64,000 nucleotides of DNA from Dehalococcoidia bacterium (lineage in GTDB: Bacteria > Chloroflexota > Dehalococcoidia > Bin125). Where the stretch lies: NCBI GenBank assembly GCA_965215375.1, contig CBDCDO010000001.1:893567-957566 (forward strand), given 5' to 3'. A program made the position numbers and the translations under genes. Below are positions 34,237 to 56,339 of the stretch, one piece after another; positions within the stretch are counted from its first letter, which is position 1; every line of letters begins with the position of its first letter. The notes below the pieces were generated by a model. The model was not told where the DNA came from. It ran no database searches and was given only the letters and a program-made list of their open reading frames with translations.

Positions 34237-35295
34237 TCAGAGCCCCACCGTCACCGGACGCGTCATCCCGCCGAATGTCGGCATCCAGCACGAATGCTTG
34301 CCCGGCCCTCCAGCGACGATGATGTGAATCTCCTCAGGCCGATCCGAGATCGGCAGCCACTCATCCGAGCTATGCGTCGGCAACACGCCGCCCGCCATAC
34401 GGATGTTCACCGACTCCAGAAATTCCTCGCTCAGCTTGCTCGCCGGATACCGAGCGTTCTCCCACAGATACTCCTGCACCGACTCTCGCGTCCAACCCTC
34501 CGACGCGACCGTCTCTGCGTGTTCTGGACCAAACGCCAGCACAGGTTCGCCCTTGCCCAGAATGTTGTTCGATCCTGCCTGACCCATCGCCCCAGCGACC
34601 GTCTGCAGGATCCCCGCCGCCGTGTTACTGCCGTGATCCTGAATGTTGTGCGGACCCTCGCACGCCCAGGTCGTCACACAGCTGTCCTCTGCATTGAGCC
34701 CGCGCGTCGTCTGGAACGGCGGCCACGGCGACGCATCCTCACGCTCGGTTGCGCAAAATGCGAACTTGGCCGGCGTGCCCTGCGTCGCGCGATCGCCCCG
34801 ACCAGGTGTCGCTCCGGCGACATTCAGTTGCACCAGTCGCACCGCTCGCCCGATCGTCGCGTTGGACGGAAATGTCGGCCCGAAACAGCCCGATCCGCCG
34901 TGAATGCCAGCCGCTCGCGCCGCCGGACCCGACGCCAGGACAAACACCGCGCACGGATGCGTCGTCGCATTGATTCCGTCGAGATTGAACGGCGGCTGCG
35001 CAATCGCTTCGACCGCCGCCAGCACGATCGGGAACTGCTGCGGCCGACAACCCGCCATCACCGCGTTAATCGCGACCGCCTGCACCGTCGCCTCGCCTTG
35101 ACGAGGCGACAACACACCCAACACCTCCATCGGATCGCGACCCGCAGCCTCGACCATCGCCGCAACGCGCTCCGCCGTCGGCGGAATCAGCGGCAGGCCG
35201 TCGGACCACCCACGACGTTGGCACTCCTGCGAGAACTCGAACGCGTCGGCCGGCAGCGAGAATCGCTCGGCCTCTCGACCTCGAGCCGCCGTCAC
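34237..35295 (-). CDS. conserved hypothetical protein (352 aa), translationally coupled to the upstream selenoprotein gene
   Basis: GTG start overlaps the TGA stop of the upstream gene (GTGA at 35292-35295). Balanced composition; contains GWSDGLPLIPPT...AINAVMAGCRPQQFPIVLAAVEAIA. No family recognised. Confidence 0.55.
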   Translation of the reverse strand: MTAARGREAERFSLPADAFEFSQECQRRGWSDGLPLIPPTAERVAAMVEAAGRDPMEVLGVLSPRQGEATVQAVAINAVMAGCRPQQFPIVLAAVEAIAQPPFNLDGINATTHPCAVFVLASGPAARAAGIHGGSGCFGPTFPSNATIGRAVRLVQLNVAGATPGRGDRATQGTPAKFAFCATEREDASPWPPFQTTRGLNAEDSCVTTWACEGPHNIQDHGSNTAAGILQTVAGAMGQAGSNNILGKGEPVLAFGPEHAETVASEGWTRESVQEYLWENARYPASKLSEEFLESVNIRMAGGVLPTHSSDEWLPISDRPEEIHIIVAGGPGKHSCWMPTFGGMTRPVTVGL

Positions 35296-35837
35296 GATGT
35301 CCCCGCCTCACCAAGCAGCGCCGCCTCAAGACGATCAACTACACCATCATCGACCCGTCCGCGCACGCGCTCAGGTCGCAGCCCACCAAGCGGATGCGGC
35401 ACAATCAAGCGGTCCAACTCGGGCAACCCGCGCTGCTCCGCTTCGAGTTGCAGCAAATCCGTAAACGCCGACGTCCCAACCGTCACCGTCGGAATTCCCA
35501 TCTCTTCAAACAGCACTGAGGCGTGGACACTCCACGTCGTGCAGCTTCCTCAATCGCAGCTCCCAATGAGCAGGAAATCGGCCCCGTTCCGCAGCGCGTC
35601 AATCGTCGAGTCTGACGGCGGCCCACCAACCGGCTTGCTGCCAACGACCACGTCGCCCAACCGATGCCGTTCGCCCAACCGCTCGACCATCGTTTCCATC
35701 AGCAAACGGGCATTCGCCTTCCGATTCTCCAGAATCCCAGGTCGAAGCCCGTCCAACGACGTCGGTCGAGGCGCCGCCGTCGCCTCATGAATCGCCACAT
35801 GAGCCAACGGACTCAAAATCTCAATCGTCTCCGGCAT
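35292..35837 (-). CDS. UGSC-type selenoprotein with in-frame TGA (Sec) at 35550-35552
   Basis: Track ORFs 35550..35885 and 35292..35516 are in the same frame (offset 258 nt) and separated only by TGA. Read-through gives ...ADFLLIGSCD-U-GSCTTWSVHASVLFEEMGIPTV... A GC-rich hairpin sits 11 nt after the UGA. Best RBS is GGAGG-6 nt-ATG at 35837. Confidence 0.6.
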
Positions 35838-35872
35838 CGCAATCCTCCAGTCACCTGCCATCTCCAAACAGC

Positions 35873-37537
35873 CTAAGGCTTCCAATCCTCCGGCTCGACG
35901 ACGATGATCTCGATGTACCCCAACACACGACGTTCCTCCAGGGTGGCGCCCGGGTCACCTTGGGTACCGGCTGGGCATCGTGTCGTCACCTCAACTAGCA
36001 CCCGTCCAAGCTGGGTAGGAGTGCCCCGCAACAGCATCTCGGCTCCGATGATGCCGCCATCATCGTCGTATGTCGTGATACTCGTAGGCGCAATCAACCC
36101 ATTCCAAGCTTCAACGAGTTGATCTTCATTCGACAGATTACCACTGAAGTAGTGACCCTGTTGCTGGTAAGATTCGTCCGGGCTCGGCCGCCCTTGGATC
36201 CAACAAAAGGCATCCGAAAACTCTTGTGTTGATGTCAACACTACCCGATCGTACCAGTGGTACGGACGACCAAGTTCCACGAACACCGTACGGATCAGGT
36301 CATCCGGCCCCACAGTTGTCCTGTCTGACGGATCCGACGGTAAATTGGCAAACAGTTGCTTTTGTATCTGGACTGTGCGCTCCGAAGGTGGTTCGAACGA
36401 TATTGGATTCCCGGCATAGACGAAGCGAAAGTTGGCATTCCGACGCGCTTCAGCGGACCGAAAGTGAGGAATGTAGCGTTCCCAAACCGCCAACATCGTC
36501 GCGACAAACTCCGGACCGAAAAACTCATCAGGATCGGTGATAGCCCGTACGTAGTCTACCAGTAAATCAGCAAATGTGTCTGATTGATCAGCTTCGATAA
36601 CTCGACCCTCTACCGGAATCATCGCTCGCGACTCAACGCCATTGATGAACACTGGAACGTCCGATGCTCGATCTCCAAACAGGTCAACGTTGATCAAGTC
36701 GAACAACCGATTGATCTGATACCAATACGTCCCCCAATCAGGGCGCCAAGTCGATTCCACATCGACGACGTAGTCGGGCAGGAAGTAGTCATTGACATGC
36801 CTGGCCCAGTCCACAGCGTCGCCAAAGTGGTGACCATCAACGCCAGTTAGAGGCCCTGAAGTAATGGACAGCCCCAGCCGAGGTTTGTAGTATATTACCG
36901 ACGAGTTCCAAATGCCGTGTCCTGTGGTTTCTAGGAATAGCACGGTACGAGGTGTATCATCACCTCTATTTCCCGTGCCGTCGTAGCCAGTGTGATACCA
37001 GCCTTGTTCACCATGGATGATCACTTTTCGGTCAAGAGCGTAGATGATAAAATCAGGATCAGTGACCCGCAGGTCTGTTGCGAAAAGCTCTGCTCTTGAT
37101 AGGCACCCTGGTGTTCCAGATGAAATACCAAGCGCATCGAGCTCAATCTGAAACTCCGCAGAGCAGTCGGCGAGGAAGCTCATGCGATCTTGATACACGT
37201 CGATGGTGAGGAATGACCACTGATTTGGTCGACCTTGCCAGAGCAGTGTCACCTCTCCAAGATCGAGCAATGCACCATGCTCGAAACGTTGACCTGGGAT
37301 GGCGAAGCCTTCACCGCGCTCCGCGGCGTCGGCGAAACAGTCCGTAATCGCATCTCGTGATGCGCTGCCAGGGATTTCTTCGGCATACTTCAGCCATTGT
37401 GTTCCGTTATAGCACCATGCTGGGAGGTCGGCGCGATTTGCCTCAACTGTGGCGTTCCAAGCGAAGAGGCTTGCGCTGATCGCGAACGCGAGGATGGCGA
37501 ATCCAACCCAAGGTCGATGTGCGCGCCTACGTCTCAT
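35873..37537 (-). CDS. secreted / membrane-anchored hypothetical protein (~555 aa), lower GC than its neighbours
   Basis: N-terminal MRRRRAHRPWVGFAILAFAISASLFAWNA signal/anchor, many Trp/Tyr, no recognised catalytic motif. Local GC is ~52% versus ~65% in the flanks. The track ORF extends to 37579. Confidence 0.55.
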   Translation of the reverse strand: MRRRRAHRPWVGFAILAFAISASLFAWNATVEANRADLPAWCYNGTQWLKYAEEIPGSASRDAITDCFADAAERGEGFAIPGQRFEHGALLDLGEVTLLWQGRPNQWSFLTIDVYQDRMSFLADCSAEFQIELDALGISSGTPGCLSRAELFATDLRVTDPDFIIYALDRKVIIHGEQGWYHTGYDGTGNRGDDTPRTVLFLETTGHGIWNSSVIYYKPRLGLSITSGPLTGVDGHHFGDAVDWARHVNDYFLPDYVVDVESTWRPDWGTYWYQINRLFDLINVDLFGDRASDVPVFINGVESRAMIPVEGRVIEADQSDTFADLLVDYVRAITDPDEFFGPEFVATMLAVWERYIPHFRSAEARRNANFRFVYAGNPISFEPPSERTVQIQKQLFANLPSDPSDRTTVGPDDLIRTVFVELGRPYHWYDRVVLTSTQEFSDAFCWIQGRPSPDESYQQQGHYFSGNLSNEDQLVEAWNGLIAPTSITTYDDDGGIIGAEMLLRGTPTQLGRVLVEVTTRCPAGTQGDPGATLEERRVLGYIEIIVVEPEDWKP

Positions 37538-37562
37538 ATAGTGCACAAGTGGACAAGCATCC

Positions 37563-37814
37563 TTACTCCAGATACCCATAGACGAGCTCCCGTAACTCGT
37601 CCATGTCCGGGAACCGACCCATCGCCGCCTTGCTAAACACGAGTTCGCCGTTCACCGACCACTCGAACAGGCCCTTCGTGTCCGGCACCAACCGCACGTC
37701 GCTGACGAGATGCTGGATGTCCGCCATCAGCTCGCCAAGCATCCACGACGTGCGCGGCCAGTACCCACAGTCGGCGCAGTAGACCACCTCTATCGCGATT
37801 TGCGCTTCTGACAT
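37563..37814 (-). CDS. Rdx-family (SelW/SelT/SelH-like) thioredoxin-fold protein, Cys form (CxxC)
   Basis: IAIEVVYCADCGYWPRTSWMLGELM matches the I-x-YC-x-x-C-x-W-x-R-x-x-W pattern of the Rdx family, where selenoprotein homologues carry CxxU. 83 aa. Confidence 0.65.
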   Translation of the reverse strand: MSEAQIAIEVVYCADCGYWPRTSWMLGELMADIQHLVSDVRLVPDTKGLFEWSVNGELVFSKAAMGRFPDMDELRELVYGYLE

Positions 37815-37823
37815 CGTGCGCCC

Positions 37824-38834
37824 CTATCCCCCCAGATACTGTTCCAGCCGCCTGCCGACCTCCGACGGCGTGCCCGACGGTAGTGGAATCATCTGCAAGT
37901 CAGCACCAGCGTCCGACCGAGACTGCAACTGCTCCGAGACCGTTTCAATCGGCCCGATCACCTGAATCTCCCGAACCATGTGCTCCGAGAACGCCATTAG
38001 CGCGGCCTCAGAGTCTCGGTCGGCCCAGGCTGTGCGCGATTCCTTGATCTCAGACTCAAAGCCCGACCGCGAAAGCATCTGCCAGTAGAACGAACCCATC
38101 CGGTTCGTGTAATGAAACAGTGGCTGTCGAGCATTGCGCCACGTCTGCTCGTCATCTCCTTCGCCGGTCACGTACACATTCGTGAACGGCGCCACCGTGA
38201 CTGAGTCCTCGGGCCGACCAGCATCGCGCGACGCCCCCGCAAGCTGTCGCTTCAGCGACTCAAACGACCGCTTCGGCCAGTGAATCGGATAGATCCCGTC
38301 CGCGATCTCACCAGTCTGCTGAATTGACCGAGGCGTAATCGCCGCAATCCAGACCGGAATGTCTTCCCGCACCGGCTCATATCCAAGCAGACGGAAACCC
38401 CGCTGGAGCGTGTAAATCTCGCCCTCATACATCAGCCGTTGTCCACTGAGGAGCATCTTGATGATCTCCGTGTACTCACGGATGCGTCGCAGCGGTCGAT
38501 CGAAACCGACCCCGTGGAATCCCTCAATTACCAAGTTCCCCGATGATCCCAGCCCGCAGACCATGCGCCCGCCCGAGATCGTCTCGAGCGTTGCAAACTC
38601 CTGCGCGATCACCGCCGGTGTCCGCGAGAACGTGTTGAGAATCCCTGTCCCAATCTGGATCTTCTCCGTGTTCGCAGCAATCACCGTCAGCCACGGCAAC
38701 ACCGAGTGCCCCCAGGCCTCGCCCGTCGACACCATCTCGTAACCGAGGTCCTCAGCGATTTTCACCTTCTCCAAGGTGTCTCGCCAGTTCGTGTCGAATC
38801 CTGCCAAAATGCCCAGTCGCATTGTCGTGCTCAT
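37824..38834 (-). CDS. LLM-class F420/flavin-dependent oxidoreductase
   Basis: RLGILAGFDTNWRDTLEKVKIAEDLGYEMVSTGEAWGHSVLPWLTV...GLGSSG TIM-barrel LLM pattern. Confidence 0.8.
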   Translation of the reverse strand: MSTTMRLGILAGFDTNWRDTLEKVKIAEDLGYEMVSTGEAWGHSVLPWLTVIAANTEKIQIGTGILNTFSRTPAVIAQEFATLETISGGRMVCGLGSSGNLVIEGFHGVGFDRPLRRIREYTEIIKMLLSGQRLMYEGEIYTLQRGFRLLGYEPVREDIPVWIAAITPRSIQQTGEIADGIYPIHWPKRSFESLKRQLAGASRDAGRPEDSVTVAPFTNVYVTGEGDDEQTWRNARQPLFHYTNRMGSFYWQMLSRSGFESEIKESRTAWADRDSEAALMAFSEHMVREIQVIGPIETVSEQLQSRSDAGADLQMIPLPSGTPSEVGRRLEQYLGG

Positions 38835-38844
38835 CGGTTCGCTC

Positions 38845-39306
38845 CTATTCGATTTCGACGATCATTTCGATTTCCACAGCCATGCCCACCGGCAACGACT
38901 GCATGCCGACCGCGGAACGCGCGTGACGGCCACTCTCGCCAAACAGCTCGACCAACAAGTCGGACGCGCCATTGGCGACGCCAGGGTGGTTACCAAACTC
39001 CGGCGTGCAGTTGACCATGCAGAGCAACTTCACAATCCGCGAGACGCGGTCCAGCGAGCCGATCTCGGCCCGCAGCGAGCCCAGCAATTGCACCATCACC
39101 GCCCGAGCAGCATCGTAGCCCGCGTCGACATCCATGTCGGCGCCCAGCTTGCCTCGAATCAACTCGCCGTCCTTGAACGGACCGTGTCCCGAGAGAAACA
39201 CGAGATTACCCGTCCGCACCGCAGGCACATAGTTGGCCAGCGGCGGATTCGTCGAAAGATCGAGCCCCATCTCCAACGCCTTCGCGTCGGCGTTATGTGC
39301 AGACAT
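38845..39306 (-). CDS. RidA/YjgF/RutC family protein
   Basis: VRTGNLVFLSGHGP...NCTPEFGNHPGVANGASDLLVELFGESGRHARSAVGMQSLPVGMAVEIEMIVE. Confidence 0.8.
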   Translation of the reverse strand: MSAHNADAKALEMGLDLSTNPPLANYVPAVRTGNLVFLSGHGPFKDGELIRGKLGADMDVDAGYDAARAVMVQLLGSLRAEIGSLDRVSRIVKLLCMVNCTPEFGNHPGVANGASDLLVELFGESGRHARSAVGMQSLPVGMAVEIEMIVEIE

Positions 39307-39367
39307 CGAGAGCTCCTTCCGCTTCGTGCGCTCGTCGCGAACCCGTTCCGTCCACGAGTTCCGAGAG

Positions 39368-39763
39368 TCAGCCTACCGCAGACCGATACGCCCGCAGTTC
39401 AATCTCATTGCCATCCGGATCGGCGATGTACAACCCATCGGCCATCCCGCGAGCACCGAACAGCTCGAAATCAGGATCACGCACAATCCTAAACCGTCCC
39501 GACGTGCGAACCTCATCCATGCTCTCCGCGCTCACAACCATGCAGAAGTGGTCAAGATTCCGACGCACCTGGTCCACCTCACCCTCGATCAGATCGATGA
39601 TCGTCCCCTCAGAAATCCGCACCGACGGAAACGGACACTCCTCAGCCTGCCATTCTTCGACCCGCACGGGCTCAAGTCCCAACTCGTTCGCATACCAGTC
39701 CAACGACCGTTTCACATCGGAAACCCGCAGGACGATATGGTCCATCGCCACAACTCGAACCAT
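39368..39763 (-). CDS. VOC family (glyoxalase/bleomycin-resistance/dioxygenase fold) protein
   Basis: MDHIVLRVSDVKRSLDWYANELGLEP...YIADPDGNEIEL. Confidence 0.7.
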   Translation of the reverse strand: MVRVVAMDHIVLRVSDVKRSLDWYANELGLEPVRVEEWQAEECPFPSVRISEGTIIDLIEGEVDQVRRNLDHFCMVVSAESMDEVRTSGRFRIVRDPDFELFGARGMADGLYIADPDGNEIELRAYRSAVG

Positions 39764-39849
39764 CGTGCATGTCCCTTCAGTCCGACTCGCGGCCACCCGC
39801 GGAAGTGCGGTAAACCGTCCGACACAACGAGCATAACATCAAACACTCG

Positions 39850-39858
39850 TGCTATGAT
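39850..39858 (+). promoter_or_regulatory. candidate extended -10 (TGCTATGAT) for the MoaD-like/BNR gene
   Basis: tgctatgat lies 25 nt upstream of the ATG at 39883, in a divergent intergenic region. Confidence 0.3.
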
Positions 39859-39882
39859 AGCGGGGCGCGAAGGAAAAGCAAG

Positions 39883-41271
39883 ATGAGCGTCGAAATTCGT
39901 ATGGCCCGCGGACTCCGAGTCCACCTCGAAGTGCCCGAGCGCGCCCATGTCGACGGCGCGACCGCCCGCGAGGCGATCGACGCCCTGATCGCGCTCCATC
40001 CCGGGCTCCGCCAATTCGTCCTCGACGACGCCCGCCGACTGCGCCAGCACGTCAATCTCTACATCAACGACGAGCTCATCCGCGATCGCCAGGAGCTCTC
40101 CGACCCCGTCTCAGACGGCGACACAATCTATATCCTCCCCGCCGTCTCTGGTGGCGCCGACACCACTCGCAACCCTGAGGAGAACAGCATGAGCGAATCA
40201 CAGTCAGAAGTCGGCCTCCTGGTCAGCACCCGCAAAGGCCTACTCATCGGACGCAGCTCCAACGGACGCCAACAGTGGGAATGGTCCGACCTCCAGCGCT
40301 CCGGCTGGATCGTCGACTACACAACGTTGGACGCCAGAACCAACAAGATCTGGTGCTCCGCGAGCCACTGGCAGTGGGGACCGCGACTGCACTACTCGAC
40401 CGATTTCGGCGGAACATGGGTCGAGGCTGGCACGCCCGCATTCGACGACGGCGAACGCTCGGTCGAGGCGATCTGGATGATCGAGCCCGGCGGCCACGAG
40501 GGTCGACTGTTCGCCGGGATCATGCCAGCCGCGCTGTTCCGCTCCGACGACGACGGCGCCTCGTGGCGCGAGGTCACCTCGCTGACCGAGCATCCGTACA
40601 GCAAGTACTGGGAGCCCGGCGCCGCCGGCTTGGTCATCCATCACATCTCCGTCGATCCGCAAGACGCTGACCGAATCGTCGTCGGAGGCTCCGCCACCGG
40701 AGTCTTCGTCTCCTACGACGGCGGCGATACCTGGATGGCACGCAATCGTGGCATCCGCTCCGATCACATGCCGCCCGACCTGCAGGAGCTCGCGCCGTGC
40801 GTGCACTCGCTCTTCGCTCACCCGTCGGAGCCCGGCCGACTTTGGCAACAGAATCACTTCGGACAGTACCGCTCCGACGACGATGGCGAGTCCTGGATCC
40901 AAGTCGGCGAGAACCTGCCTGGCCTGTTCGGATTTCCAACCGCCATCGACCCACGCAATCCCGATGCCTGCTACTTCGTCCCGCACGACTCCGACCAAGC
41001 GCGTATGCCATACAACGGCTCTCTCGCCGTGTTCCGCACTCGCGACGCCGGCCAAACATGGGATCGTCTCGATAACGGACTGCCACAGGTCGACTTCTTC
41101 CACACCGTCTATCGACACGCCCTCGGACAAGACGCCTGTGATCCGCTCGGCCTCTACTTCGGTTCCAGCGGAGGCGAACTCTACGGCTCCATCGACGGCG
41201 GAGACAGCTGGGCCCTCCTCCGAGAGCACCTCGCCCCAATCACTGCCGTCCGAGCCTGGCAAATGGAGTAA
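39883..41271 (+). CDS. MoaD/ThiS-like beta-grasp sulfur-carrier-type domain (ends VSGG at residues 90-93) fused in frame to a BNR/Asp-box beta-propeller protein
   Basis: N-terminus MSVEIRMARGLRVHLEV...HVNLYINDELI...SDGDTIYILPAVSGG. The ORF then continues without a stop through a linker into STDFGGTW / SDDDGASW / SYDGGDTW / SDDDGESW / TRDAGQTW / SIDGGDSW Asp-box repeats. An internal GAGGAG-6 nt-ATG (MSESQ, ~40189) could also start the propeller alone. Confidence 0.7.
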   Translation: MSVEIRMARGLRVHLEVPERAHVDGATAREAIDALIALHPGLRQFVLDDARRLRQHVNLYINDELIRDRQELSDPVSDGDTIYILPAVSGGADTTRNPEENSMSESQSEVGLLVSTRKGLLIGRSSNGRQQWEWSDLQRSGWIVDYTTLDARTNKIWCSASHWQWGPRLHYSTDFGGTWVEAGTPAFDDGERSVEAIWMIEPGGHEGRLFAGIMPAALFRSDDDGASWREVTSLTEHPYSKYWEPGAAGLVIHHISVDPQDADRIVVGGSATGVFVSYDGGDTWMARNRGIRSDHMPPDLQELAPCVHSLFAHPSEPGRLWQQNHFGQYRSDDDGESWIQVGENLPGLFGFPTAIDPRNPDACYFVPHDSDQARMPYNGSLAVFRTRDAGQTWDRLDNGLPQVDFFHTVYRHALGQDACDPLGLYFGSSGGELYGSIDGGDSWALLREHLAPITAVRAWQME

Positions 41272-41352
41272 GCCAAGCTCCGCACCGAAGCACTCGTCAA
41301 ACCCGCATGGCACGCTCGACCTACAGACCGGCACACCCGCGCTTGACGGAGA

Positions 41353-41533
41353 CCTTTGAATAACTCAATTTCCCGTCCCCGCTCCCGAGCGGGGACCCGC
41401 TTTGTCAAAGCCCAGGCTGCTCGGATAGGTCCCGGTTGAGCAGATACCGGCGACATACATGGCGGCCGGTAAGAAGCCAGGGAAGGAGCAGGCCCCCGCT
41501 CGGAGGCGGGGGCGGTTGAGGGGTGATTCAAAG
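41353..41533. mobile_element. MITE-like 181-bp element, copy B (inverted relative to copy A)
   Basis: The reverse complement aligns at ~90% identity with 21586-21768. Ends are CCTTTGAATAAC... and ...GGTGATTCAAAGG. Confidence 0.6.
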
Positions 41534-41626
41534 GTCTTCGCTTGACGCGGGTATCTCGCCCCACGCTGCACCCTCCGAAACGGACCACCAATGCTCAAGA
41601 CCGCCCTCACAGTTAGGGTGAGAGGC

Positions 41627-42571
41627 ATGGCAGCGAGGCCAACTGAAGAAACCGTTCCAGCACAAGCAGCGGTCACGCTGGACGGCCGCCGACCGCTCTC
41701 GCTCCGCGGCGGCGCCTTCGCGATGCTCCTCGTCCTCCTCTGGGGCGGACAGCCATCAGCGATCAAAGCAGGCCTCGACGAAGGCGCTGGCCCGTTCGCA
41801 CTGAGCGCCGTCCGCATGGCCCTCGGCGGTGTCGTCGTGATCGGCTACGCGATCGTCACGCGGACACCGCTCTGGCCGTCACGCAACGAGTATCGCGCGT
41901 TGGTCGGCCTGGGCATCCTCTTCGTCGTCCAGACAATGCTGATGTACGTCGGCGCCGACAACACCAGCTCCGGCCACGCGTCCGTCCTGATCTTCTCGTT
42001 CCCGCTCTGGACCGCCGTGCTCGGACACTTCTTCGTGCCCGGCGACCGAATGTCCGCGCGACGCACCCTAGGCCTGCTCGTCGCCTATGCCGGAGTGATC
42101 ACTGTCTTCGTCGGAGGCTTCAGCGCTCCCGGCGCGACAATCTGGGGCGACCTCATGACCGTTACCTCCGCCCTGTTGCTCGCCGCCCGACAGGTCTACC
42201 TCTCGCACTTCTCGCAGAGCATCCATCCCGCCCGACTCCTCATGACCCAATCGGTCGCAGCCGTCCTCATCTTCGGTGCGGCGAGCCTCCTGTTCGAGTC
42301 CGGCGGGCTCACCTGGACCACTGAGTTCGTCATCGCTCTGCTCTACCAAGGCGTCGTGATCGGCGGATTCGGATTCATCGGCAACACCTTCCTCGTCCAG
42401 AGATTCTTCCCATCACAGGTCGCCGCGACCATGCTCTTCGCACCGATCTTCGGCGTCATCTTCAGCTGGCTGATCCTCGGAGAATCGCTCGGCTACGAAG
42501 TGCTCGTCGGCGTCGTGCTGCTGGTCATCGGCAGTTCAGTCGTCCAACTCCGACGACAACCGACCACCTAG
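41627..42571 (+). CDS. DMT superfamily (EamA-like) transporter
   Basis: Ten predicted TM helices in two EamA repeats. The track ORF starts at 41591. Confidence 0.75.
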   Translation: MAARPTEETVPAQAAVTLDGRRPLSLRGGAFAMLLVLLWGGQPSAIKAGLDEGAGPFALSAVRMALGGVVVIGYAIVTRTPLWPSRNEYRALVGLGILFVVQTMLMYVGADNTSSGHASVLIFSFPLWTAVLGHFFVPGDRMSARRTLGLLVAYAGVITVFVGGFSAPGATIWGDLMTVTSALLLAARQVYLSHFSQSIHPARLLMTQSVAAVLIFGAASLLFESGGLTWTTEFVIALLYQGVVIGGFGFIGNTFLVQRFFPSQVAATMLFAPIFGVIFSWLILGESLGYEVLVGVVLLVIGSSVVQLRRQPTT

Positions 42572-43437
42572 TCCCAGTCGTCCATCCCCAGCAACCGACG
42601 ACCCAGCGGCGTCAGCTCAGCAGGCGCCGACTCAGCCTCTTTGCGTCTTGGATCGCCAGGAAACGCTCGAGCATTCTGGAAAGTCGGATGCGCGCGGTCG
42701 CGCCACGACGCAATCCGAGCCTCACGCAACTCCTCATTCGACGGCTCAGCGGGGAACATACGGACATACTGCGCCAGACGAGGCTTATCCGAGAAGTTGC
42801 GACTGTTCCCGTGCGGAAGCGCCGAGTGCCAGATGATGAAGTCGCCTGCATCTGCCTCAACCTCGATCGGCGGACCCATCCGCTCAGGAAATCGCTTATG
42901 AAGCTGTTGGTGTCGCAGATCATCGTCACTGATCCCCGCCGAGATCTCAGCCGCCCGACGATGCGCGCCCGGCACGCACTGGAATCCGCCCTCGCCCGCT
43001 CGCGTATCGACCAGATACAACACACCCTGCACCAGAAACGGCGTCGGCGTCTCACGGACATCCATGTCCCAGTGCACCATGCCATGGTGATCGTATTCCG
43101 GATACGCATCATTCGGCGGAGGCTTCAGATTGGCGCGGTCGATAAAGACCCACAAGTCGTCGCGACCAAACAGCTCCCGAAACAGCTCATACACCCGAGG
43201 ATTCTGCCGAACGTCCCACAGCGCCTGGTGGTGATACATCTCGACCATGCCATTGACGCGATGCGGCTCCCGATACCAGTCCGACGGATCATTACAGTCA
43301 AACTCGAGAAAGTCCCAAATCGCATCCACGACCGCCGTCACCTGCTCCCGAGGGATCAGCTGACGCACCACGAGGTAGCCCTGCTGGTCAAAGAACGCGC
43401 GATCCGCATCCGTGAGCATCGCAGCCTCCATGATCAA
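42568..43437 (-). CDS. phytanoyl-CoA dioxygenase (PhyH) family Fe(II)/2OG oxygenase
   Basis: HWDMD...HSALPHGNSRN His/Asp...His facial-triad spacing typical of PhyH. Confidence 0.7.
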   Translation of the reverse strand: MIMEAAMLTDADRAFFDQQGYLVVRQLIPREQVTAVVDAIWDFLEFDCNDPSDWYREPHRVNGMVEMYHHQALWDVRQNPRVYELFRELFGRDDLWVFIDRANLKPPPNDAYPEYDHHGMVHWDMDVRETPTPFLVQGVLYLVDTRAGEGGFQCVPGAHRRAAEISAGISDDDLRHQQLHKRFPERMGPPIEVEADAGDFIIWHSALPHGNSRNFSDKPRLAQYVRMFPAEPSNEELREARIASWRDRAHPTFQNARAFPGDPRRKEAESAPAELTPLGRRLLGMDDWD

Positions 43438-44033
43438 TCCGCGAACGGAGCATCAATACCCGGCGGCATCGCCACGTTGAATGTGTTCAGACCGATCGAC
43501 ACCAACGCGTAGTAACCCATCACCGAGGCGACCTCAAAGACGCCGCTCTCGCCCAAAATGTCATTGAGCGCGCTATACGTCTCATCCGACACACGCTGGT
43601 TCTCAATCAGTTCGCGACCAAACTGATAGACCGCCTGCTGCCGCTCATCGCCGAAGTACGGTTGCTCACCATCGCGGATCGCGTCGATCGCACCCTCCGA
43701 CACACCAGCGTTAACCGCCATCCTCGCGTGCGCCCAAAACTCGAAGTTCGCGCGCCAGTGACCGCCCATCGTGCAAATCGCGACCTCCAACAAGTCACTC
43801 GGAAGCGACGTCTGATAGCGAATTGCGGCACCCAGCTTCTGGATCGCATCGCCGAGTTCAGGCGACAGGAACAGCGCGTTGAACGGACCGATCAGCGCGC
43901 CATCGGCACCAGCCAATCCACCATGCTCGCGCTCAGGGTTTCCTCGCGGGCCGGTCGTGATGTTCTCCCAGAGCACTCGCTGATCATCGTTCAGCGAATC
44001 AAATGTTTGTGGTCCAAGTCGCGGCATGGTCAT
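43434..44033 (-). CDS. carboxymuconolactone decarboxylase (CMD/AhpD-like) family protein
   Basis: All-alpha 199-aa protein with the AICTMGGHWRANFEFWAH pattern. Confidence 0.65.
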   Translation of the reverse strand: MTMPRLGPQTFDSLNDDQRVLWENITTGPRGNPEREHGGLAGADGALIGPFNALFLSPELGDAIQKLGAAIRYQTSLPSDLLEVAICTMGGHWRANFEFWAHARMAVNAGVSEGAIDAIRDGEQPYFGDERQQAVYQFGRELIENQRVSDETYSALNDILGESGVFEVASVMGYYALVSIGLNTFNVAMPPGIDAPFAD

Positions 44034-46648
44034 TCCTCCTGTGTTCGAGCGGCTACTGTCCGACCGTGCAGATGCCTCGGCAGCAGGTGCTCTGGATAGG
44101 CAGTGCCGACCAGGCCCTTCGCCACCAGCTCCGCCAGCTCAGCCTCCGAATAGCCGAGCAGGTCGCGATAGATCTCCTCATTATGTTCACCCAGCTTGGC
44201 CGGCGGCGTCCGCAGCTGGTTCGGCGTCCGACCCATCGAGAAACTCAGTCCCGGATATCGATGCGTGCCGACATCGTCCATCGTCAGCGGCTCAAAGAAC
44301 CCGACCTCTCGCAAATGCCGATCCGACAATGCGTCAAACGGATCATTGAGCGGCGCCGCGCAAATCCCGGCCGCCTGCAACTTGTGGAACAGATCCTCCT
44401 TGTTCCACACCCGCGTCTCTTGAGCAATCAACTCGTCAAGCACGACCGCATTCTGCCTCCGAGACTCCGCGTGCGAGAACCGCGTGTCGAGCGGCGCATG
44501 CGCTAACTCCGACTGCACCGATGCCTCACCAGGACCCGCCGCTAGCGCGTCGCACAACGTCACAAACTCAGCGTCAGAGCTGATATCGATTGCAATCCAC
44601 TGGTCCTCACCCCGACACGGATACACACCATACGGTGCGTGATACTTGTGACTGTTCCCCTGCGACGGCGGATTCACACCATTCATCGAGTACTCAAACA
44701 AGTACTCAGCGAGCGTCGGGATGAACCCCTCGTTCAGTGGCATTTCGATCAGCTGACCCTCACCCGTCCGCTCGCGATGACGCAATGCCATCATCACCGC
44801 TACCGCTCCTTGCACTCCCGACATACCATCGCTCGCGAGCGTCTCGCCAATCCCTTCAGGACTGCGATCAGGATATCCACGCAAATGCGTATGGCCGACC
44901 ATCGCCTCGACATGCAAGCCAAACGCCCGATACGACGAGTACGGACCTTCAAGCCCAAACGCCGGCATCCGTAACATAATCAATCGCGGATTCACCGCTC
45001 GTAACTCATCCCAACCGATGCCCGCCTTGTCGATCGTCGTCGGAACATTGTTCTCGACCAGGACATCGCACTGTTCAATCAAGCGGAAGAACGCCGCTTT
45101 CCCCTCCGGCGACATGATGTCGCAAGTCATCGATCGCTTATTCCGCGCATGAGAGTTAAACGACGCAGACCGATTCCACGGATCATCACCCAGCTCCGAG
45201 TCGGGATACTGCGGCTGCACTCCAATCGCCGCGCCGCGATCCATCGTCTCCTTGCTCTGAGCGTTCTCAACCCCCCGTGTATACGGCTGAATCCGATTGA
45301 CCGGCTCCACATTGACCACATCAGCGCCCCACTCGCCCAAGAGCTGCGCCACATGCGGACCCGCCCAGACCACCGTCACCGCCGCGACTCGAAGGCCCTC
45401 AAGTGGCAAATGCAGCGCACTCATCGGACCGTCAGGCAGCGGATGACGCAGATCCTCTATCGGATCAGGCGGCGTGAAGTCAAGCACGACGCGTGAATGC
45501 TCACCCAGTCGAGGCGAACGCTTCGGTCGCGGCGGCTGCGACTCACTCATTCGGAACGGGAACCCCGGATACGGCAGAGCCGTCCCATGCCAATGCGCAA
45601 TCTGATGCCACCAGTCGCGAGCCGCGAGCTGCGGATCATCCAGCACATCAGCGACTGTCATCACGGCGCCCGCAAGCAACCGGTTCGACTGAGCCTCCGC
45701 CACCGCGTCGATTTTGTTCATCCCCGACAGGTACGACTCCACGGCCTCATCGACGCGAGCGCCAAACCCCGATCCCGGCCGCGGACCTCGCAGAAAATCC
45801 TCATCCTCGAGCAGATCCTCCCGACCGATCCAGCGCATCATCCGCGGCATCCGCGATCCGGTGCCGACAATGTTCACAAACCCATCGGCGCAGGGATACA
45901 TCCCAAATCCAACCTGCCGACGTCGCGGCTGCGCCCGCCCCGGCGCAATCCCGCTGTACTCAGCCGCGACGAGCTGAATCGTCCGTCGATCCCGACACGC
46001 CACTTGGCATCGATAGATCGAGATGTCAATCCAATCCCCAGCCTGCGCATCGCTCTCTACCCGCTTCAGCGCCAGCAGGATCGCAAACGCCGCCGTCGCT
46101 CCCGCGTGATAGCTCGCATAGTGCCCAGCCAACTTGATCGGCTCACGATCCGCCGCGCCCGTCGCATGCAACGGACCACCGATCGCCTGCATCGTCAACT
46201 CCGAGCCGCGGTAATCCCGATACGGCCCGCTCTGTCCATACGCCGTAATCGAGCACATGATCAGCTTGGCATTGATCGAATGAAGCACACTCCAGCCCCA
46301 GCCTGCCTCCTGCGCCTCGCCCGGCCTCAGATCCTCAATCACTACATCCACCATCTGAGCCAGCCGACGCACCGTCGCCGCGCCATCGTCCGTCTGCGGG
46401 TCGAGCACGATCGACTGCTTGTTCGTGTTCAGGTGCATGAACAGCCCTGACGCCTCAGGATTCTGCTCTCCACCAGGAAACGGACCAAACGTTCGCGACG
46501 GGTCGCCCCCCCGAGGTTCCGCCTTGATCACCCGCGCGCCATAGTCGGCGAGCAGCTTCGTCGCATAGGGACCCGCGACCACGGTGGTCAAGTCCAGAAC
46601 CGTGATGCCTTCCAGCGGACCAGCCATGTGCGCTCCCGTTGCCGTCAA
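44030..46648 (-). CDS. tandem-fused family III CoA-transferase (two CaiB/BaiF-like modules, 872 aa)
   Basis: Both halves start with the family signature: GITVLDLTTVVAGPYATKLLADYGARVIKAEP, and again LRVAAVTVVWAGPHVAQLLGEWGADVVNVEP. Confidence 0.8.
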   Translation of the reverse strand: MTATGAHMAGPLEGITVLDLTTVVAGPYATKLLADYGARVIKAEPRGGDPSRTFGPFPGGEQNPEASGLFMHLNTNKQSIVLDPQTDDGAATVRRLAQMVDVVIEDLRPGEAQEAGWGWSVLHSINAKLIMCSITAYGQSGPYRDYRGSELTMQAIGGPLHATGAADREPIKLAGHYASYHAGATAAFAILLALKRVESDAQAGDWIDISIYRCQVACRDRRTIQLVAAEYSGIAPGRAQPRRRQVGFGMYPCADGFVNIVGTGSRMPRMMRWIGREDLLEDEDFLRGPRPGSGFGARVDEAVESYLSGMNKIDAVAEAQSNRLLAGAVMTVADVLDDPQLAARDWWHQIAHWHGTALPYPGFPFRMSESQPPRPKRSPRLGEHSRVVLDFTPPDPIEDLRHPLPDGPMSALHLPLEGLRVAAVTVVWAGPHVAQLLGEWGADVVNVEPVNRIQPYTRGVENAQSKETMDRGAAIGVQPQYPDSELGDDPWNRSASFNSHARNKRSMTCDIMSPEGKAAFFRLIEQCDVLVENNVPTTIDKAGIGWDELRAVNPRLIMLRMPAFGLEGPYSSYRAFGLHVEAMVGHTHLRGYPDRSPEGIGETLASDGMSGVQGAVAVMMALRHRERTGEGQLIEMPLNEGFIPTLAEYLFEYSMNGVNPPSQGNSHKYHAPYGVYPCRGEDQWIAIDISSDAEFVTLCDALAAGPGEASVQSELAHAPLDTRFSHAESRRQNAVVLDELIAQETRVWNKEDLFHKLQAAGICAAPLNDPFDALSDRHLREVGFFEPLTMDDVGTHRYPGLSFSMGRTPNQLRTPPAKLGEHNEEIYRDLLGYSEAELAELVAKGLVGTAYPEHLLPRHLHGRTVAARTQEE

Positions 46649-48236: not shown

Positions 48237-49397
48237 TCACCGCCGAGCACGTGTCTCCATCCCCAATAGCGGTCGGACGCCAGCATCGAAGTTCCACTCC
48301 AGCGCCGCCCCATGCTGCCGCGCGGTCTGCAGATCCCGCCACCGACGCTCCAGTGTCCAGCTACGCCGCGCCGCATTCGTTCCACCAGCGCGAAACAGTC
48401 GTTCAACCGCGTCGACACAGGCATGCACCGCGTGGACATTCGCCAACCGACATCGCCCCAACAGCTTGAGATCGGGCTCGCCCGACTCCACCGATGGCCA
48501 CGCCCTCGTCCATGCCTCCTGGACGAACGCCCGCGCGGACGAAACCTCAGCCTGCGCTCGAGCAAACGCCAACCGAAACGGCTCTCGATCCCGCAGCGCC
48601 GCCGAATCGCCCGTCGTCGACTCCGATGCCGCCCGCGCTAAGTCATCGAGCGCCCCTTGCGCCGTCCCAATCGCGTGCCCGGCATTGGCAATCCAAGCAA
48701 CCAACGAGCGGTCAGGAATCCGCCACTGCGGACCCTCGGCGTAAATCGGACCCAACGCCGCCCACGTATGCGCGTCCTGGACGAACGCACCGTTCAGCTC
48801 CCAATCGTGGCTGCCCGTGCCCCGCAAACCCATCGCGTCCCACGTTGGAATCACCTTCCCCGCACGCTGAGGCAACAGAGCGAAACGGACCTGATGCTCA
48901 AAGTCAACAAACGTCGCCACGACATGCGTCGCATGCTCGACACCGCTGACAAAGTTCAACCGACCCGACAGCCGATACCCCGAGATGTCCGGCTCCGCAG
49001 TCGTCATCACCCGCGACGATCCCACAATCCGACAGCTCGGACCACCCGGCTCCTCGCCACCGATCATCTGGCTCAACACCGAATTCGGCAGATACGCCGC
49101 CAGCAGCGATACCTCCGTCGATATCATCACCACCCACGCCGTCGACGCATCCGCATGAGCCAACGCCTCAATCGCATGAAACACCACCAACGGATGCGCC
49201 TGCTCGCCGTAGCTCCGAGCAGGAATGTTCATCCGAAACAGCCCTCGCTGGGTAATCGCGCGAATCAACTCAGCAGGGACGCTGCCCGATTCTTCAATCT
49301 CCGACGCGCAGGCCCGAATCTCCGATTGCAGCTCACGCGCCGCCGCGACGAGCGGATGCTCCTCATACTCATCAAATGGGTGGCGAGCGGTCGACAT
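48237..49397 (-). CDS. acyl-CoA dehydrogenase-family protein (type 2 / flavin-dependent monooxygenase-like)
   Basis: 386 aa with an ACAD-like three-domain pattern; there is no catalytic-Glu consensus at the C-terminus, so it may be the DszC/SfnB-like group. Confidence 0.65.
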   Translation of the reverse strand: MSTARHPFDEYEEHPLVAAARELQSEIRACASEIEESGSVPAELIRAITQRGLFRMNIPARSYGEQAHPLVVFHAIEALAHADASTAWVVMISTEVSLLAAYLPNSVLSQMIGGEEPGGPSCRIVGSSRVMTTAEPDISGYRLSGRLNFVSGVEHATHVVATFVDFEHQVRFALLPQRAGKVIPTWDAMGLRGTGSHDWELNGAFVQDAHTWAALGPIYAEGPQWRIPDRSLVAWIANAGHAIGTAQGALDDLARAASESTTGDSAALRDREPFRLAFARAQAEVSSARAFVQEAWTRAWPSVESGEPDLKLLGRCRLANVHAVHACVDAVERLFRAGGTNAARRSWTLERRWRDLQTARQHGAALEWNFDAGVRPLLGMETRARR

Positions 49398-49483
49398 GCC
49401 ACAAGGGTAGAGGTGCGGCGTGCACCTCTAGACTGCATCGCAGGACAATCTCCCAGACGGGTTCCACGCGATTGAGGGACAGC

Positions 49484-50737
49484 ATGAACGCCGAACGACC
49501 ACGATCCGCAGACGCCGCCTTGCGCGAACGCGCCCGGCAAGTAATCCCCAACGGCATGTATGGACACCAAAACGCCTCGTACCTGCCCGAGAACTTCCCC
49601 CAGTTCTTCGAACGCGGCGAAGGCGCCCACCTCTGGGACGTCGATGGCAACAGGTACATCGACTACATGTGCGCCTACGGACCAATTCTGCTCGGCTACC
49701 AGCATCCCGCCGTCGATCAGGCCGTCGCCGAGGCACAGGACGCCGGAGACTGCTTCAACGGTCCCTCCGCCAAGATGGTCGAGCTCGCCGAGCTACTCGT
49801 CGAAATCACGCCATGGGCCGACTGGGCCTGGATGGCCAAGAACGGCACCGACGCAACCGTCTTCGCCGCCTCCATCTCACAAACCGCCACCGGCCGACAG
49901 ACCATCCTCCGCGCACACGGCGCCTATCACGGCGCCTCGCCGACCTGGATCACCGCTGGCGACATGGCGCGCCCGGCTGATGGCACGCTCGAGTACGAGT
50001 TCAACGACCTCGCCTCCGTCCAATCAGCAATCGACGCGGCCGACGGCGACGCAGCCGCAATCATCGTCTCCGCCTTCCGCCACGACGTCGGCTACGACCA
50101 AGAGCTGCCCACTCCCGAGTTCGCGCGCGGCCTGCGAGAACTCTGCGATGCCCACGGCATCGTCCTGATCCTCGACGACGTGCGCGGCGGATTCCGCATT
50201 GACATGGCCGGCAGCTGGGCGCCGCTAGGCGTCGATCCCGACCTCAGCGCCTACTGCAAGGCGATCGGCAACGGTCACCCCATCTCAGCCCTCATGGGTC
50301 GAGACAGCCTCAACGAAGCCGTCGCCAAAACCATGGCCACAGGCTCCTACTGGTTCACCAGCGCCCCGATGGCAGCCGCGCAAGCCACGATTGAGACGAT
50401 GTTGGAAACGGACGGTGTTTCCCATCTCGAACGGATCGGCAGCGCCCTCCGAGCCGGCTGGCAGAAAGCCGCCGATGCCCACGACGTCGGCATCCGCCAA
50501 ACCGGTCCCGTTTCAATCCCACTGATGACGTTCGACGGCGACGATATGTCAACTCGCACCGTCCCTCGCGCCTACAAGTTCGCCGCCGAGCTCGCGGAAC
50601 GAGGCGTCTACCTGCACCCAATCCACAACGGATTCCTCTCAACCGCCCTCAGCGACGAAGACATCGCCCACACCCTCGAGGCATCAGAAGAAGCCTTCGC
50701 CGTCATCGCCGCCGAATTCGGAGACCAAACCAGCTAA
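49484..50737 (+). CDS. class III aminotransferase (glutamate-1-semialdehyde aminomutase-like)
   Basis: MNAERPRSADAALRERARQVIPNGMYGH...HLWDVDGNRYIDYMCAYGPILLGYQHP...ILILDDVRGGFR. Confidence 0.8.
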   Translation: MNAERPRSADAALRERARQVIPNGMYGHQNASYLPENFPQFFERGEGAHLWDVDGNRYIDYMCAYGPILLGYQHPAVDQAVAEAQDAGDCFNGPSAKMVELAELLVEITPWADWAWMAKNGTDATVFAASISQTATGRQTILRAHGAYHGASPTWITAGDMARPADGTLEYEFNDLASVQSAIDAADGDAAAIIVSAFRHDVGYDQELPTPEFARGLRELCDAHGIVLILDDVRGGFRIDMAGSWAPLGVDPDLSAYCKAIGNGHPISALMGRDSLNEAVAKTMATGSYWFTSAPMAAAQATIETMLETDGVSHLERIGSALRAGWQKAADAHDVGIRQTGPVSIPLMTFDGDDMSTRTVPRAYKFAAELAERGVYLHPIHNGFLSTALSDEDIAHTLEASEEAFAVIAAEFGDQTS

Positions 50738-51070: not shown

Positions 51071-52567
51071 CTAACTCCCTTGCGAATCCGTCGGACCGCT
51101 TGGCTCTGCGTCCAGCCCGGATTCAGCACCAACCTCAGACAAGGTGTCGTCACGCACCAAAATGAAGCTGGTGAATTGATCCGTCCCAGCACAAACCATC
51201 TGCTCCTCGTCCGACGCCACAGACGGCAACACCCGCCAGCTCAGCTCCGACCGATCCCAGACCGCGATCCGGGACAAGCCATCATCCGACCGACGTCGAT
51301 CAGGCAAGCAAATCACAAACTCCTCGGACAACCGCGCGCGTCGCCCAAGCGCCTCCACCGTGTTCAGATCAGACTCAACCCGCCGCCTGATCAACCACAC
51401 AGAGATATCGATGATGCGCTGAGACCGGACCACCTCATAACGTTGCTCCTCATCACCGACCACAACGTACAAATCACTCGACGCACCGCCGCGGAATCGA
51501 CTGCGATAATCATCAATCGAATGCAACTGCGTCGTAATGTAAACACCACGCTGCAACCGCAACTGATCATCGTCCAACGCATCCCCAAGACCCGACAGAT
51601 CCAACATTCCCGAACCAGAGCAAGGTCTCAGGCTAGGTACTTCCGATCCATGCGTCGGAAACGCCTGCCCAACCGGCTCGAGGACATCCTGCACAGTTCC
51701 CCGACAAAAGCCCGGCGGATCCTGATACACATACGATGTACGCCTCGTCGGCGTCGGCGCTGGACTCGGATTTGTTCCGCCGCTGTCATCCTCGTCATCG
51801 TCATCTTCGTCAGGTTCGCTGCCATCGGTGATCGTAAAGTTGGAACCACTCGTCATACCGTCATACCCACCGCCCGATGCAGCAGTCGTTACTCTCACCG
51901 TCTGGCCGACTAACGCCGCGTCATCCGCCGCCAACAACGTCACCGACTGGAATTGGTTCCAAAGATTGCTGCCGCTTGGATTGAATGTCACACTCGTCGG
52001 CTGCGCTGTGACACCTTCATTGTCCACAGTGACCGACACCGTCACAGTACCGGTCGGCTTCGACACCAGCTTGAAGGAGTGCGTAGCACTGTCACCCACA
52101 ACGATGTTTCCCGATGGCCGCCTGAAATCCATAGCCTTGATTTCATTATCCTCGATGTTCAGCTGATATTGATCATCATCGCCGACAGTGTAACCAGTAC
52201 CTGCGCTCAAGCTGAGGAGTACCGTTTCCCGAAAGTCCTCGAGTACGGGATCGTCAACCAACGTTACCGAGATCGACGCACTCGTAGCGTTCGCCCCGAC
52301 ACTCACCGTGCCACTATTGCTTGTCACTCCGCTAATGGAATAGTCAGTATCCCGAGTCGCCGTCCCCGACAGCGTATAGCCAACGCTCATGGTCCCCGTC
52401 GGCGCCGGGCTCACGTTCAGCGCGATACTGACGCTGCCCAGATCCTCGTAGGCATTCATTGACGACGACGCAAAGGACACCACCGGCGTCGAAGACTGAC
52501 CCTCGGCCACGCGCAGCGGCATCGCCAACAGCACCGCCCCAACAACGAGGCTCGACAAGGCCAACAT
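51071..52567 (-). CDS. secreted protein with two Calx-beta-like domains and a ~250-aa C-terminal domain of unknown function
   Basis: Signal peptide MLALSSLVVGAVLLAMPL, Calx-beta-like segments (VSVGYTLSGTATRDTDYS...VLLSLSAG), an acidic PDEDDDDEDDSGG linker, then an uncharacterised C-terminal domain. The track ORF extends to 52735. Confidence 0.55.
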   Translation of the reverse strand: MLALSSLVVGAVLLAMPLRVAEGQSSTPVVSFASSSMNAYEDLGSVSIALNVSPAPTGTMSVGYTLSGTATRDTDYSISGVTSNSGTVSVGANATSASISVTLVDDPVLEDFRETVLLSLSAGTGYTVGDDDQYQLNIEDNEIKAMDFRRPSGNIVVGDSATHSFKLVSKPTGTVTVSVTVDNEGVTAQPTSVTFNPSGSNLWNQFQSVTLLAADDAALVGQTVRVTTAASGGGYDGMTSGSNFTITDGSEPDEDDDDEDDSGGTNPSPAPTPTRRTSYVYQDPPGFCRGTVQDVLEPVGQAFPTHGSEVPSLRPCSGSGMLDLSGLGDALDDDQLRLQRGVYITTQLHSIDDYRSRFRGGASSDLYVVVGDEEQRYEVVRSQRIIDISVWLIRRRVESDLNTVEALGRRARLSEEFVICLPDRRRSDDGLSRIAVWDRSELSWRVLPSVASDEEQMVCAGTDQFTSFILVRDDTLSEVGAESGLDAEPSGPTDSQGS

Positions 52568-56155: not shown

Positions 56156-56339
56156 AGGGCGCGCTTGAGGCCAATTTCACCCGTCGAGAGCCCCGAGCAG
56201 CCCCCCGATCAAGTCGGGGGATAGAGAAAGGAAGGCCAAGCAGACCCCCGCGTGACGCGGTGGATGGGGAAGCGCCAACCGTTCCTCCGTCTCAGGACGG
56301 GACCGAGAGCGACCCCGTCGTATCCTGAGGCAGCCCACT

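Follow-up and report, generated by a model that had tools for sequence, protein, structure and literature searches.

We analysed a 64,000-nucleotide (nt) stretch of a Dehalococcoidia genome, referred to below as the window, in which one open reading frame (ORF) joins a sulfur-carrier-like β-grasp domain to a β-propeller with Asp-box repeats. The original prediction, made from the letters of the window, had described a single ORF with no stop codon after the Gly-Gly (GG) of the carrier-like part. Direct reading of the sequence gave the same result. The features of the gene and of its immediate upstream region are as follows.

39797..39882, no strand: divergent intergenic region of 86 nt, between a VOC gene (39368-39796, minus strand) and the fused gene.
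39883..41271, plus strand: fused ORF of 462 amino acids plus stop, consisting of a carrier-like β-grasp domain, a linker and an Asp-box propeller (profile matches and the fused orthologue in locus L003).
39883..40155, plus strand: ThiS/MoaD-family β-grasp domain, residues 1-91, ending in ILPAVSGG (PF02597, the SAMP1 model, PDB profile matches and the AlphaFold2 model).
40150..40155, plus strand: codons GGT GGC of Gly90-Gly91 (alignments of fused proteins and locus checks).
40156..40188, plus strand: linker ADTTRNPEENS, residues 92-102, 11 amino acids (alignments and AlphaFold2 model).
40177..40182, plus strand: Shine-Dalgarno-like GAGGAG, read from the sequence, 6 nt before the internal ATG.
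40184..40186, plus strand: site of a 1-nt deletion (GAGAACCA to GAGAACA, compared with L094), from alignment with the closest split relative.
40189..40191, plus strand: internal ATG (Met103), from alignment with the propeller genes of relatives.
40189..41268, plus strand: seven-bladed Asp-box propeller of the 3B7F / YP_299179.1 family, residues 103-462 (profile, Foldseek and Asp-box scan).
40396-40419, 40543-40566, 40711-40734, 40873-40896, 41038-41061 and 41188-41211, plus strand: the six Asp-boxes.
40639..41178, plus strand: stretch holding the conserved residues outside the Asp-boxes, a putative ligand or active site (alignments and blade topology).

No sigma-70 consensus was found in the 86-nt intergenic region, and no Rfam family and no noteworthy sigma-70 or terminator consensus was found around the fused gene. 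The AlphaFold model of the whole protein had a mean predicted local distance difference test (pLDDT) score of 86.9.

The N-terminal domain belongs to the ThiS/MoaD family. The PF02597 ThiS profile matched residues 24-91 (profile positions 20-76 of 76), with the second Gly of ILPAVSGG at the last position, and its score passed the cut-off of 22.5 bits both with the full-length protein (43.6) and with the isolated domain (48). Among curated NCBIfam models, the SAMP1 equivalog (NF041918) fitted best. It matched over its full length (positions 21-91 of 91) and reached the GG, and scored 58.6 bits with the isolated domain, just under the cut-off of 60, and 54.0 with the full-length protein. The domain also fell below the cut-offs of the MoaD model TIGR01682 (19.1 bits; 66.15), the archaeal-type MoaD model TIGR01687 (37 bits; 49.5) and the ThiS model TIGR01683 (15 bits; 37.45). 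In a PDB profile search the best solved matches were CysO chains (4N6E_B at 4e-12 and 3DWG_C at 5e-10), with SAMP1 and MoaD also found, and the matches to all three spanned the whole domain. The AlphaFold2 model had pLDDT values of about 80-95 for residues 1-87 and showed the mixed strand-helix pattern of a β-grasp fold. The MoaD/ThiS-like assignment of the original prediction, for which fold prediction had been proposed as a check, is borne out by these results.

The hallmark GG is present as described, but at residues 90-91 and not at 92-93. It is internal in the window protein, with 371 residues after it, so there is no free C-terminal GG. Across an alignment of 37 fused proteins, with identities as low as 40 %, both glycines (G90 and G91) were invariant and S89 nearly so, and GG was found in every ThiS-positive locus checked. 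The two parts were also found as separate genes, a check that the original prediction had suggested, and 15 separate carriers ended exactly at SGG-stop, among them those of annotated pairs in a P. aeruginosa record, Ralstonia solanacearum and Mitsuaria. The linkers of the fusions, as seen in aligned proteins and sampled loci, varied from a few to about 30 amino acids and were not conserved. The counterpart of the window's linker in split relatives is the C-terminal tail of the carrier; this segment is unconserved and predicted to be disordered. In the AlphaFold models, the SGG plus linker was the sole low-confidence stretch between the domains, both in the window protein (residues 88-105, pLDDT below 50) and in the short-linker fusion P0068 (residues 81-87). 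Because both glycines are invariant and free carriers stop directly after them, the GG can be read as the functional end of the carrier. The junction looks disposable, since linker and tail are variable, unconserved and modelled with low confidence.

The combination of carrier and propeller is widespread. A database search returned 1234 homologues, many of them proteins of 440-470 amino acids from Actinomycetota and Acidobacteriota with both PF02597 and the propeller, and relatives turned up in at least 588 of the species-representative genomes scanned. An exact-sequence look-up found no database record of the window's own protein. Existing database names for the fusions include 'MoaD/ThiS family protein' and 'molybdopterin converting factor small subunit / PSII assembly factor-like'. 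We classed 94 loci by tblastn and then by a hidden Markov model (HMM) of the N-terminal domain; Chloroflexota, Actinomycetota, Acidobacteriota, Gemmatimonadota, Proteobacteria, Eisenbacteria and Dormibacterota were among the phyla covered. The carrier was fused to the propeller in 55 loci (L019 and L052 are counted as fused by the HMM) and was a separate gene directly upstream in 26. In two further loci, L066 and L075, the separate carrier lay directly downstream. The remaining 11 propellers had no adjacent carrier gene (seven in Verrucomicrobiota, one in Streptomyces, two in Rhodobacterales and one on a short contig). The propeller tree required at least 10 changes between these states. All-against-all clustering of the ORFs within 7 kb at 88 loci revealed no conserved neighbours beyond local synteny. 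Recurrent fusion, fission and order inversion with no other conserved gene is the signature of proteins that work together, and this comparative pattern indicates that carrier and propeller form a widespread two-part module. The original prediction had called the domain combination unusual, which did not hold. Most members of a large Actinomycetota/Acidobacteriota clade are fused, and the fusion is already named in public databases; it is real, and the combination is not rare.

Two observations concern single members of this set. In the Eisenbacteria and Dormibacterota metagenome-assembled genomes (MAGs) with the downstream carrier (L066, 10732-11571; L075, 10894-11379), a ThiS-like gene partly overlaps the propeller gene and ends in VSGG-stop, with the gene order inverted relative to all other loci. 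In Rhodobacter sp. CZR27 (L090, 4583-8110), a carrier-less propeller homologue is divergent from the ergothioneine genes egtB and egtD, which is a single case. Two groups of apparent members were rejected. Matches on haloarchaeal plasmids were distant and partial matches to other Asp-box propellers rather than orthologues, and a BNR protein from a mutant-fitness study was of a Ycf48-like family linked to an RND exporter.

The frequency of the fusion might suggest that the β-grasp part is a permanent ubiquitin-like domain that is never released, acting as a docking, regulatory or substrate-presenting module with the GG as a flexible hinge. We consider this unlikely, although it deserves serious attention. 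The majority status of the fusion in a large clade fits it well, and so do the shortest linkers, the confident folding of both domains in one model chain and the lack of a linked peptidase gene. A hinge, however, does not need an invariant SGG, and the 15 orthologous free carriers that end at GG-stop, as well as the two encoded downstream, are typical of C-terminally activated carriers. Eukaryotic integral ubiquitin-like domains generally lose the GG, which also counts against a permanent domain. Moreover, a fused carrier can require cleavage, as in MoaX. The original prediction had weighed release by a protease against a fused ubiquitin-like module; this was the right question, and the precedents of MoaX and of the Deinococcus radiodurans MoaD-MoaE fusion favour release.

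The window's relatives are Chloroflexota/Dehalococcoidia MAGs, and in this Chloroflexota clade the carrier and propeller genes are normally separate and overlapping. All 66 free carriers of the clade had ILPAVSGG followed by an unconserved hydrophilic tail of 1-34 amino acids (mode 12). The residue after the GG was Ala, Ser or Thr in 61 of them, and none had a stop directly after the GG. The closest split relative, L094, had a carrier 92 % identical to that of the window. At the junction L094 reads GAGGAGAACCAACATGAGTGA, and the window and L003 read GAGGAGAACAGCATGAGCGA, with one C missing from a CC dinucleotide. This 1-nt deletion brings the carrier frame into register with the propeller frame. 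L003 is a 97 %-identical fused relative from an independent assembly with the same in-frame junction. As the window and L003 are nested inside an all-split clade on the propeller tree, the fusion in this lineage is recent and secondary, having arisen by a 1-nt merge of two overlapping genes.

The start signals of the propeller gene have outlasted the merge. The internal Shine-Dalgarno-like GAGGAG with its 6-nt spacing and the ATG at 40189 were present as originally predicted. In relatives with a stand-alone propeller gene, the start codon aligned exactly with this ATG, and AGGAG- or GGAGG-type sites occupy the place of the window's GAGGAG. The alignment identifies the element (40177-40191) as the retained and intact start signals of the ancestral separate propeller gene, from which free propeller may still be made.

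As the fusion hangs on one missing C in a CC dinucleotide, it could be asked whether an indel introduced in sequencing or assembly has created the in-frame junction, with two separate genes in reality, as in the relatives. This is hardly credible. The independently assembled L003 has the same junction while differing in about 3 % of residues, which makes an assembly error unlikely. The 97 %-identical fused orthologue P0001 represents 12 member sequences, and fused versions are common elsewhere.

The C-terminal part matched BNR (PF02012) and Sortilin-Vps10 (PF15902), both above the cut-offs. The six Asp-boxes of the original prediction were all found (residues 172-179, 221-228, 277-284, 331-338, 386-393 and 436-443). 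The blades, however, number seven, of which six carry an Asp-box, as the protein belongs to the family of PDB entry 3B7F. A profile built from the fused homologues matched 3B7F with an E value of 6.9e-88 over positions 91-456 at 36 % identity, and the AlphaFold model superposed on it in Foldseek with an E value of 2e-33 and a target-normalised template modelling (TM) score of 0.89. This entry is Reut_B4987 (YP_299179.1) of Ralstonia eutropha JMP134, with the title 'putative glycosyl hydrolase with BNR repeats'. In a survey of Asp-box propellers it is the type of the seven-bladed 'YP_299179.1 family', for which no function is given (PMC2716378).

Outside the Asp-boxes, a polar set of H253, C306, H308, Q323, H325, R374 and R411 was conserved together with F349-G-F351, P367, G427 and G431. 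These residues were kept in at least 95 % of the aligned propellers, with or without an adjacent carrier gene. By the strand assignments of the AlphaFold model, they lie at the starts of inner strands or in the loops between strands 2 and 3. Blade topology would thereby place them opposite the Asp-boxes, on what is generally the functional face of such propellers (PMC2716378), and they would form a putative ligand or active site.

The invariance of C306, H308 and H325, and the lack of a linked gene for a separate peptidase, could be explained if the propeller itself were the Gly-Gly-specific peptidase and processed its own fusion. However, the same residues are equally conserved beside carriers that already end at GG-stop and in propellers with no adjacent carrier. 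Since they are kept where no processing is needed, that cannot be what they mainly serve. The profile and fold searches matched the propeller to no peptidase family. We regard self-processing as highly improbable.

Database names such as 'exo-alpha-sialidase' and 'glycosyl hydrolase BNR repeat' imply that the propeller is a sialidase or glycoside hydrolase, with the β-grasp part as an accessory, solubility or binding domain. GH74 xyloglucanases were indeed the nearest folds after 3B7F in Foldseek. The BNR_2 sialidase-like profile, however, reached 18.4 of the 31.4 bits required, and the F510_1955 family glycosylhydrolase model (NF045728) 61.7 to 64.2 of 175. The propeller lacks any [FY]RIP or RIP motif, and no segment resembling a signal peptide was found at its N-terminus. 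The stand-alone propellers begin 3-10 residues before the first strand and thus have no room for a signal peptide, so the propeller is predicted to be a cytoplasmic protein. For the GH33 sialidases, the low BNR_2 score, the seven blades instead of six and the missing FRIP motif and signal all spoke against membership. GH74 enzymes build their catalytic cleft from two seven-bladed propellers in tandem. The window protein has a single propeller of about 360 amino acids, half the length of the matched enzymes (about 700-790 residues), which aligned over one propeller with low TM scores. None of the sialidase or glycosidase family tests applied placed the propeller in such a family. The names are automatic and derive from the Asp-box repeats, and 3B7F, a structural-genomics entry, is called only 'putative'. 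A glycosidase function is therefore very doubtful.

We propose that the β-grasp part is a dedicated carrier and the propeller its cognate partner enzyme, analogous to MoaD-MoaE or ThiS-ThiG, and that a fused or tailed carrier is cut after the GG. We put the probability of this reading at about 0.55. By analogy with MoaE, ThiG and CysM, the propeller is most likely the enzyme where the activated C-terminus of the carrier is used. In the window's clade, translation of the propeller gene is normally coupled to that of the separate but overlapping carrier gene, and the carrier has a short disposable tail beyond its GG. In the window's lineage the 1-nt deletion in the overlap merged the frames, so that the former tail now runs into the propeller. 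Translation would yield the 462-amino-acid fusion and probably also free propeller from the internal start signals. A Gly-Gly-specific peptidase encoded elsewhere would cut after Gly91, and the same activity must trim the 1-34 amino acid tails of the split relatives. Because the carriers of this clade would all need removal of a tail to expose the GG, the fusion would be mechanistically nothing new, and the same cut would free the carrier. A housekeeping E1 of the MoeB/MoeZ/ThiF type would adenylate the exposed GG, which would probably then be thiocarboxylated. Finally, the carrier would dock on the propeller and deliver its C-terminal group to a substrate at the Cys/His/Arg-rich face. Cleavage, activation, thiocarboxylate formation and acceptor chemistry are steps that we infer.

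Several observations weigh against a carrier released and activated in this way. No gene for a ThiF-type E1 or a JAB/JAMM peptidase was found in the window by Pfam scans of 50 ORFs, and none was seen near the other loci in Pfam and annotation listings. A tblastn search over all loci with MoeB-like probes, together with a JAMM regular expression, gave nothing credible, in a search run without a positive control. The activating and processing enzymes are thus assumed and not seen. In some fusions only 2-5 residues separate the GG from the first propeller strand, which could hinder a peptidase. As 11 loci have no adjacent carrier, a carrier gene next door is not a strict requirement for the propeller. 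Literature searches on the pairing, on 3B7F/Reut_B4987, on COG4447 and on the presumed P. aeruginosa locus tags found no functional, biochemical or genetic data on any member. For E1s that are shared housekeeping enzymes, an unlinked gene is the normal situation.

The closeness of the N-terminal domain to SAMP1 raises the question of whether it is instead a protein modifier of the SAMP/TtuB/Urm1 type, with the propeller as its main target or substrate adaptor. SAMP1 gave the best curated model, and SAMP1 structures were among the best PDB matches. Lys118 in the TRKGL motif of the propeller is invariant, and the structural neighbours of the propeller include peptide-binding ones (Ycf48-D1, a DAIP-thermolysin fragment and sortilin-neurotensin). 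Nevertheless, the domain score lies below the SAMP1 cut-off, sulfur carriers of the CysO type match equally well or better, and no E1, E2 or JAMM gene is linked. The conserved Cys/His/Arg face also resembles a catalytic or ligand site more than a modification target. Conjugation seems improbable to us.

A more specific version of the carrier-partner proposal is that carrier and 3B7F-family propeller constitute an enzyme system that depends on a protein thiocarboxylate and has so far gone unrecognised. In it the propeller would act as a new kind of sulfur-transfer 'synthase', with a β-propeller fold and a Cys/His/Arg active face, that makes a thio-metabolite or a modification. This is tentative, and we consider it less likely than not. 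If true, such a system would be present in several hundred bacterial species or more, P. aeruginosa and Ralstonia solanacearum among them, and the carrier would often be made as a pro-protein or a fusion that is cut at Gly-Gly, like ubiquitin precursors.

The architecture itself is known already, being in databases in hundreds of copies, and the cutting of a carrier-partner fusion at GG is an established principle. The window's fusion, read as a frame merge, is trivial and not remarkable. What appears to be new, in the literature searched, is that the partner is an orphan 3B7F-type propeller. Sulfur-carrier and ubiquitin-like β-grasp proteins usually adjoin or are fused with the enzyme that uses them, and this rule has repeatedly led to new pathways, those of cysteine, methionine, thioquinolobactin and 2-thiosugar biosynthesis among them. 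The module behind the fusion is a reasonable lead to an uncharacterised carrier-dependent pathway. The link to a carrier is the first concrete functional hypothesis for the 3B7F family, a structure without a function since 2007, and some hosts of the pair are genetically tractable, for example P. aeruginosa, Ralstonia and Cupriavidus. The large number of tailed or fused carriers also points to a Gly-Gly-specific processing step in bacteria, little of which has been mapped.

Upstream of the fused gene, a divergent block on the minus strand (34237-39796) showed synteny conserved across the window's clade. It contains VOC/glyoxalase (39368-39796), RidA/YjgF (38845-39306) and luciferase-like monooxygenase (37824-38834) genes, a gene for a small Rdx-family protein and two small UGSC-family ORFs, as well as genes for a 568-residue protein (35873-37579) and a 352-residue protein (34237-35295) with no Pfam match. 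The divergent placement beside the Rdx genes, as originally described, was correct. It is a matter of local synteny, not conserved outside the clade. RidA, VOC/HppD-type, EamA/RhtA/RarD exporter and peroxiredoxin/thioredoxin genes recur near the pair in Ralstonia solanacearum (L089), Mitsuaria (L091), the P. aeruginosa record (L092), L007 and the window, which are unrelated genomes. An iterative profile search compared genes near the pair (within 3 kb) with a far control (5-10 kb). EamA/RhtA/RarD, VOC and RidA showed no enrichment outside the window's clade and were dropped as functional neighbours. The sensitivity of this test was limited, as neither RidA in L007 nor the annotated RarD in L091 was picked up.

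Between the propeller and EamA genes, the window has a 199-nt insertion at about 41340-41538 (window 41335-41552) that is absent from L003. It has terminal inverted repeats, GCTTGACG is duplicated at its ends, and the whole forms a single long hairpin on folding (-145.5 kcal/mol, z -4.1). One arm of the insertion recurs at 21738-21769 on the minus strand with 3 mismatches. No Rfam family matched it, and it looks like a miniature inverted-repeat transposable element. Further downstream, a conserved block on the minus strand (42568-46648) encodes a PhyH-type dioxygenase, a weakly CMD-like 199-residue protein and an 872-residue protein that matched CoA-transferase family III in two stretches. This block is followed at 48237-50734 by genes for an acyl-CoA dehydrogenase-like protein and a class-III aminotransferase. 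Long ORFs of 384-568 residues with no Pfam match were noted at 8690-9976, 12405-13556, 15132-16472, 16563-18266, 20635-22059, 51071-52732 and 56252-57706. Several of these have a third-position GC content below that of neighbouring genes; the set may thus include wrong-strand shadows as well as genes that are uncharacterised. An IS110-family transposase gene (DEDD_Tnp_IS110 and Transposase_20) lies at the window edge (63199-63984, minus strand).

Among known systems, those with a carrier fused to its user are the closest in arrangement. Carriers of the ThiS/MoaD type typically occur as fusions with the enzymes they serve, for example ThiG, MoaE, sulfite reductase and AOR (PMC1779556). MoaX, the MoaD-MoaE fusion of Mycobacterium tuberculosis, must be cut between Gly82 and Ser83 to be active, and the protease, which was not identified in the 2015 study, depends on Gly81 for recognition (PMC4326299). 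The MoaD-MoaE fusion of D. radiodurans, like MoaX a fused molybdopterin synthase, is cleaved by a JAMM peptidase (PMC8832034). The window protein has the MoaX-type architecture, with an N-terminal carrier, the GG at the junction to the partner and split orthologues, features that the Deinococcus fusion shares. A small residue follows the GG in both cases, Ser in MoaX and Ala, Ser or Thr in the window's clade. The partner differs, being MoaE in MoaX and a seven-bladed Asp-box propeller here, where cleavage is what we infer from the likeness. The window's N-terminal domain is also not accepted by the MoaD equivalog model (19 vs 66 bits).

The other systems resemble one or the other half of the protein. 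3B7F is a clear homologue of residues 103-462, with the same seven-bladed Asp-box propeller, and is a structural-genomics structure of the propeller alone; the related Ralstonia solanacearum gene has a ThiS neighbour. SAMP1 of Haloferax volcanii, to which TtuB and Urm1 are related, is the best curated match to the N-terminal domain over the full length up to the GG. It differs in that the score is under the cut-off, no conjugation machinery was found in our searches and the hosts are bacteria, not archaea. The CysO-CysM-Mec+ system of M. tuberculosis provides the best solved matches of this domain. No cysteine synthase, JAMM or E1 gene is linked to the pair here, and it is the propeller that is conserved as partner. 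HcyS and QbsE carry additional residues beyond the GG until a JAMM peptidase removes them, and the tailed carriers of the window's clade look like them.

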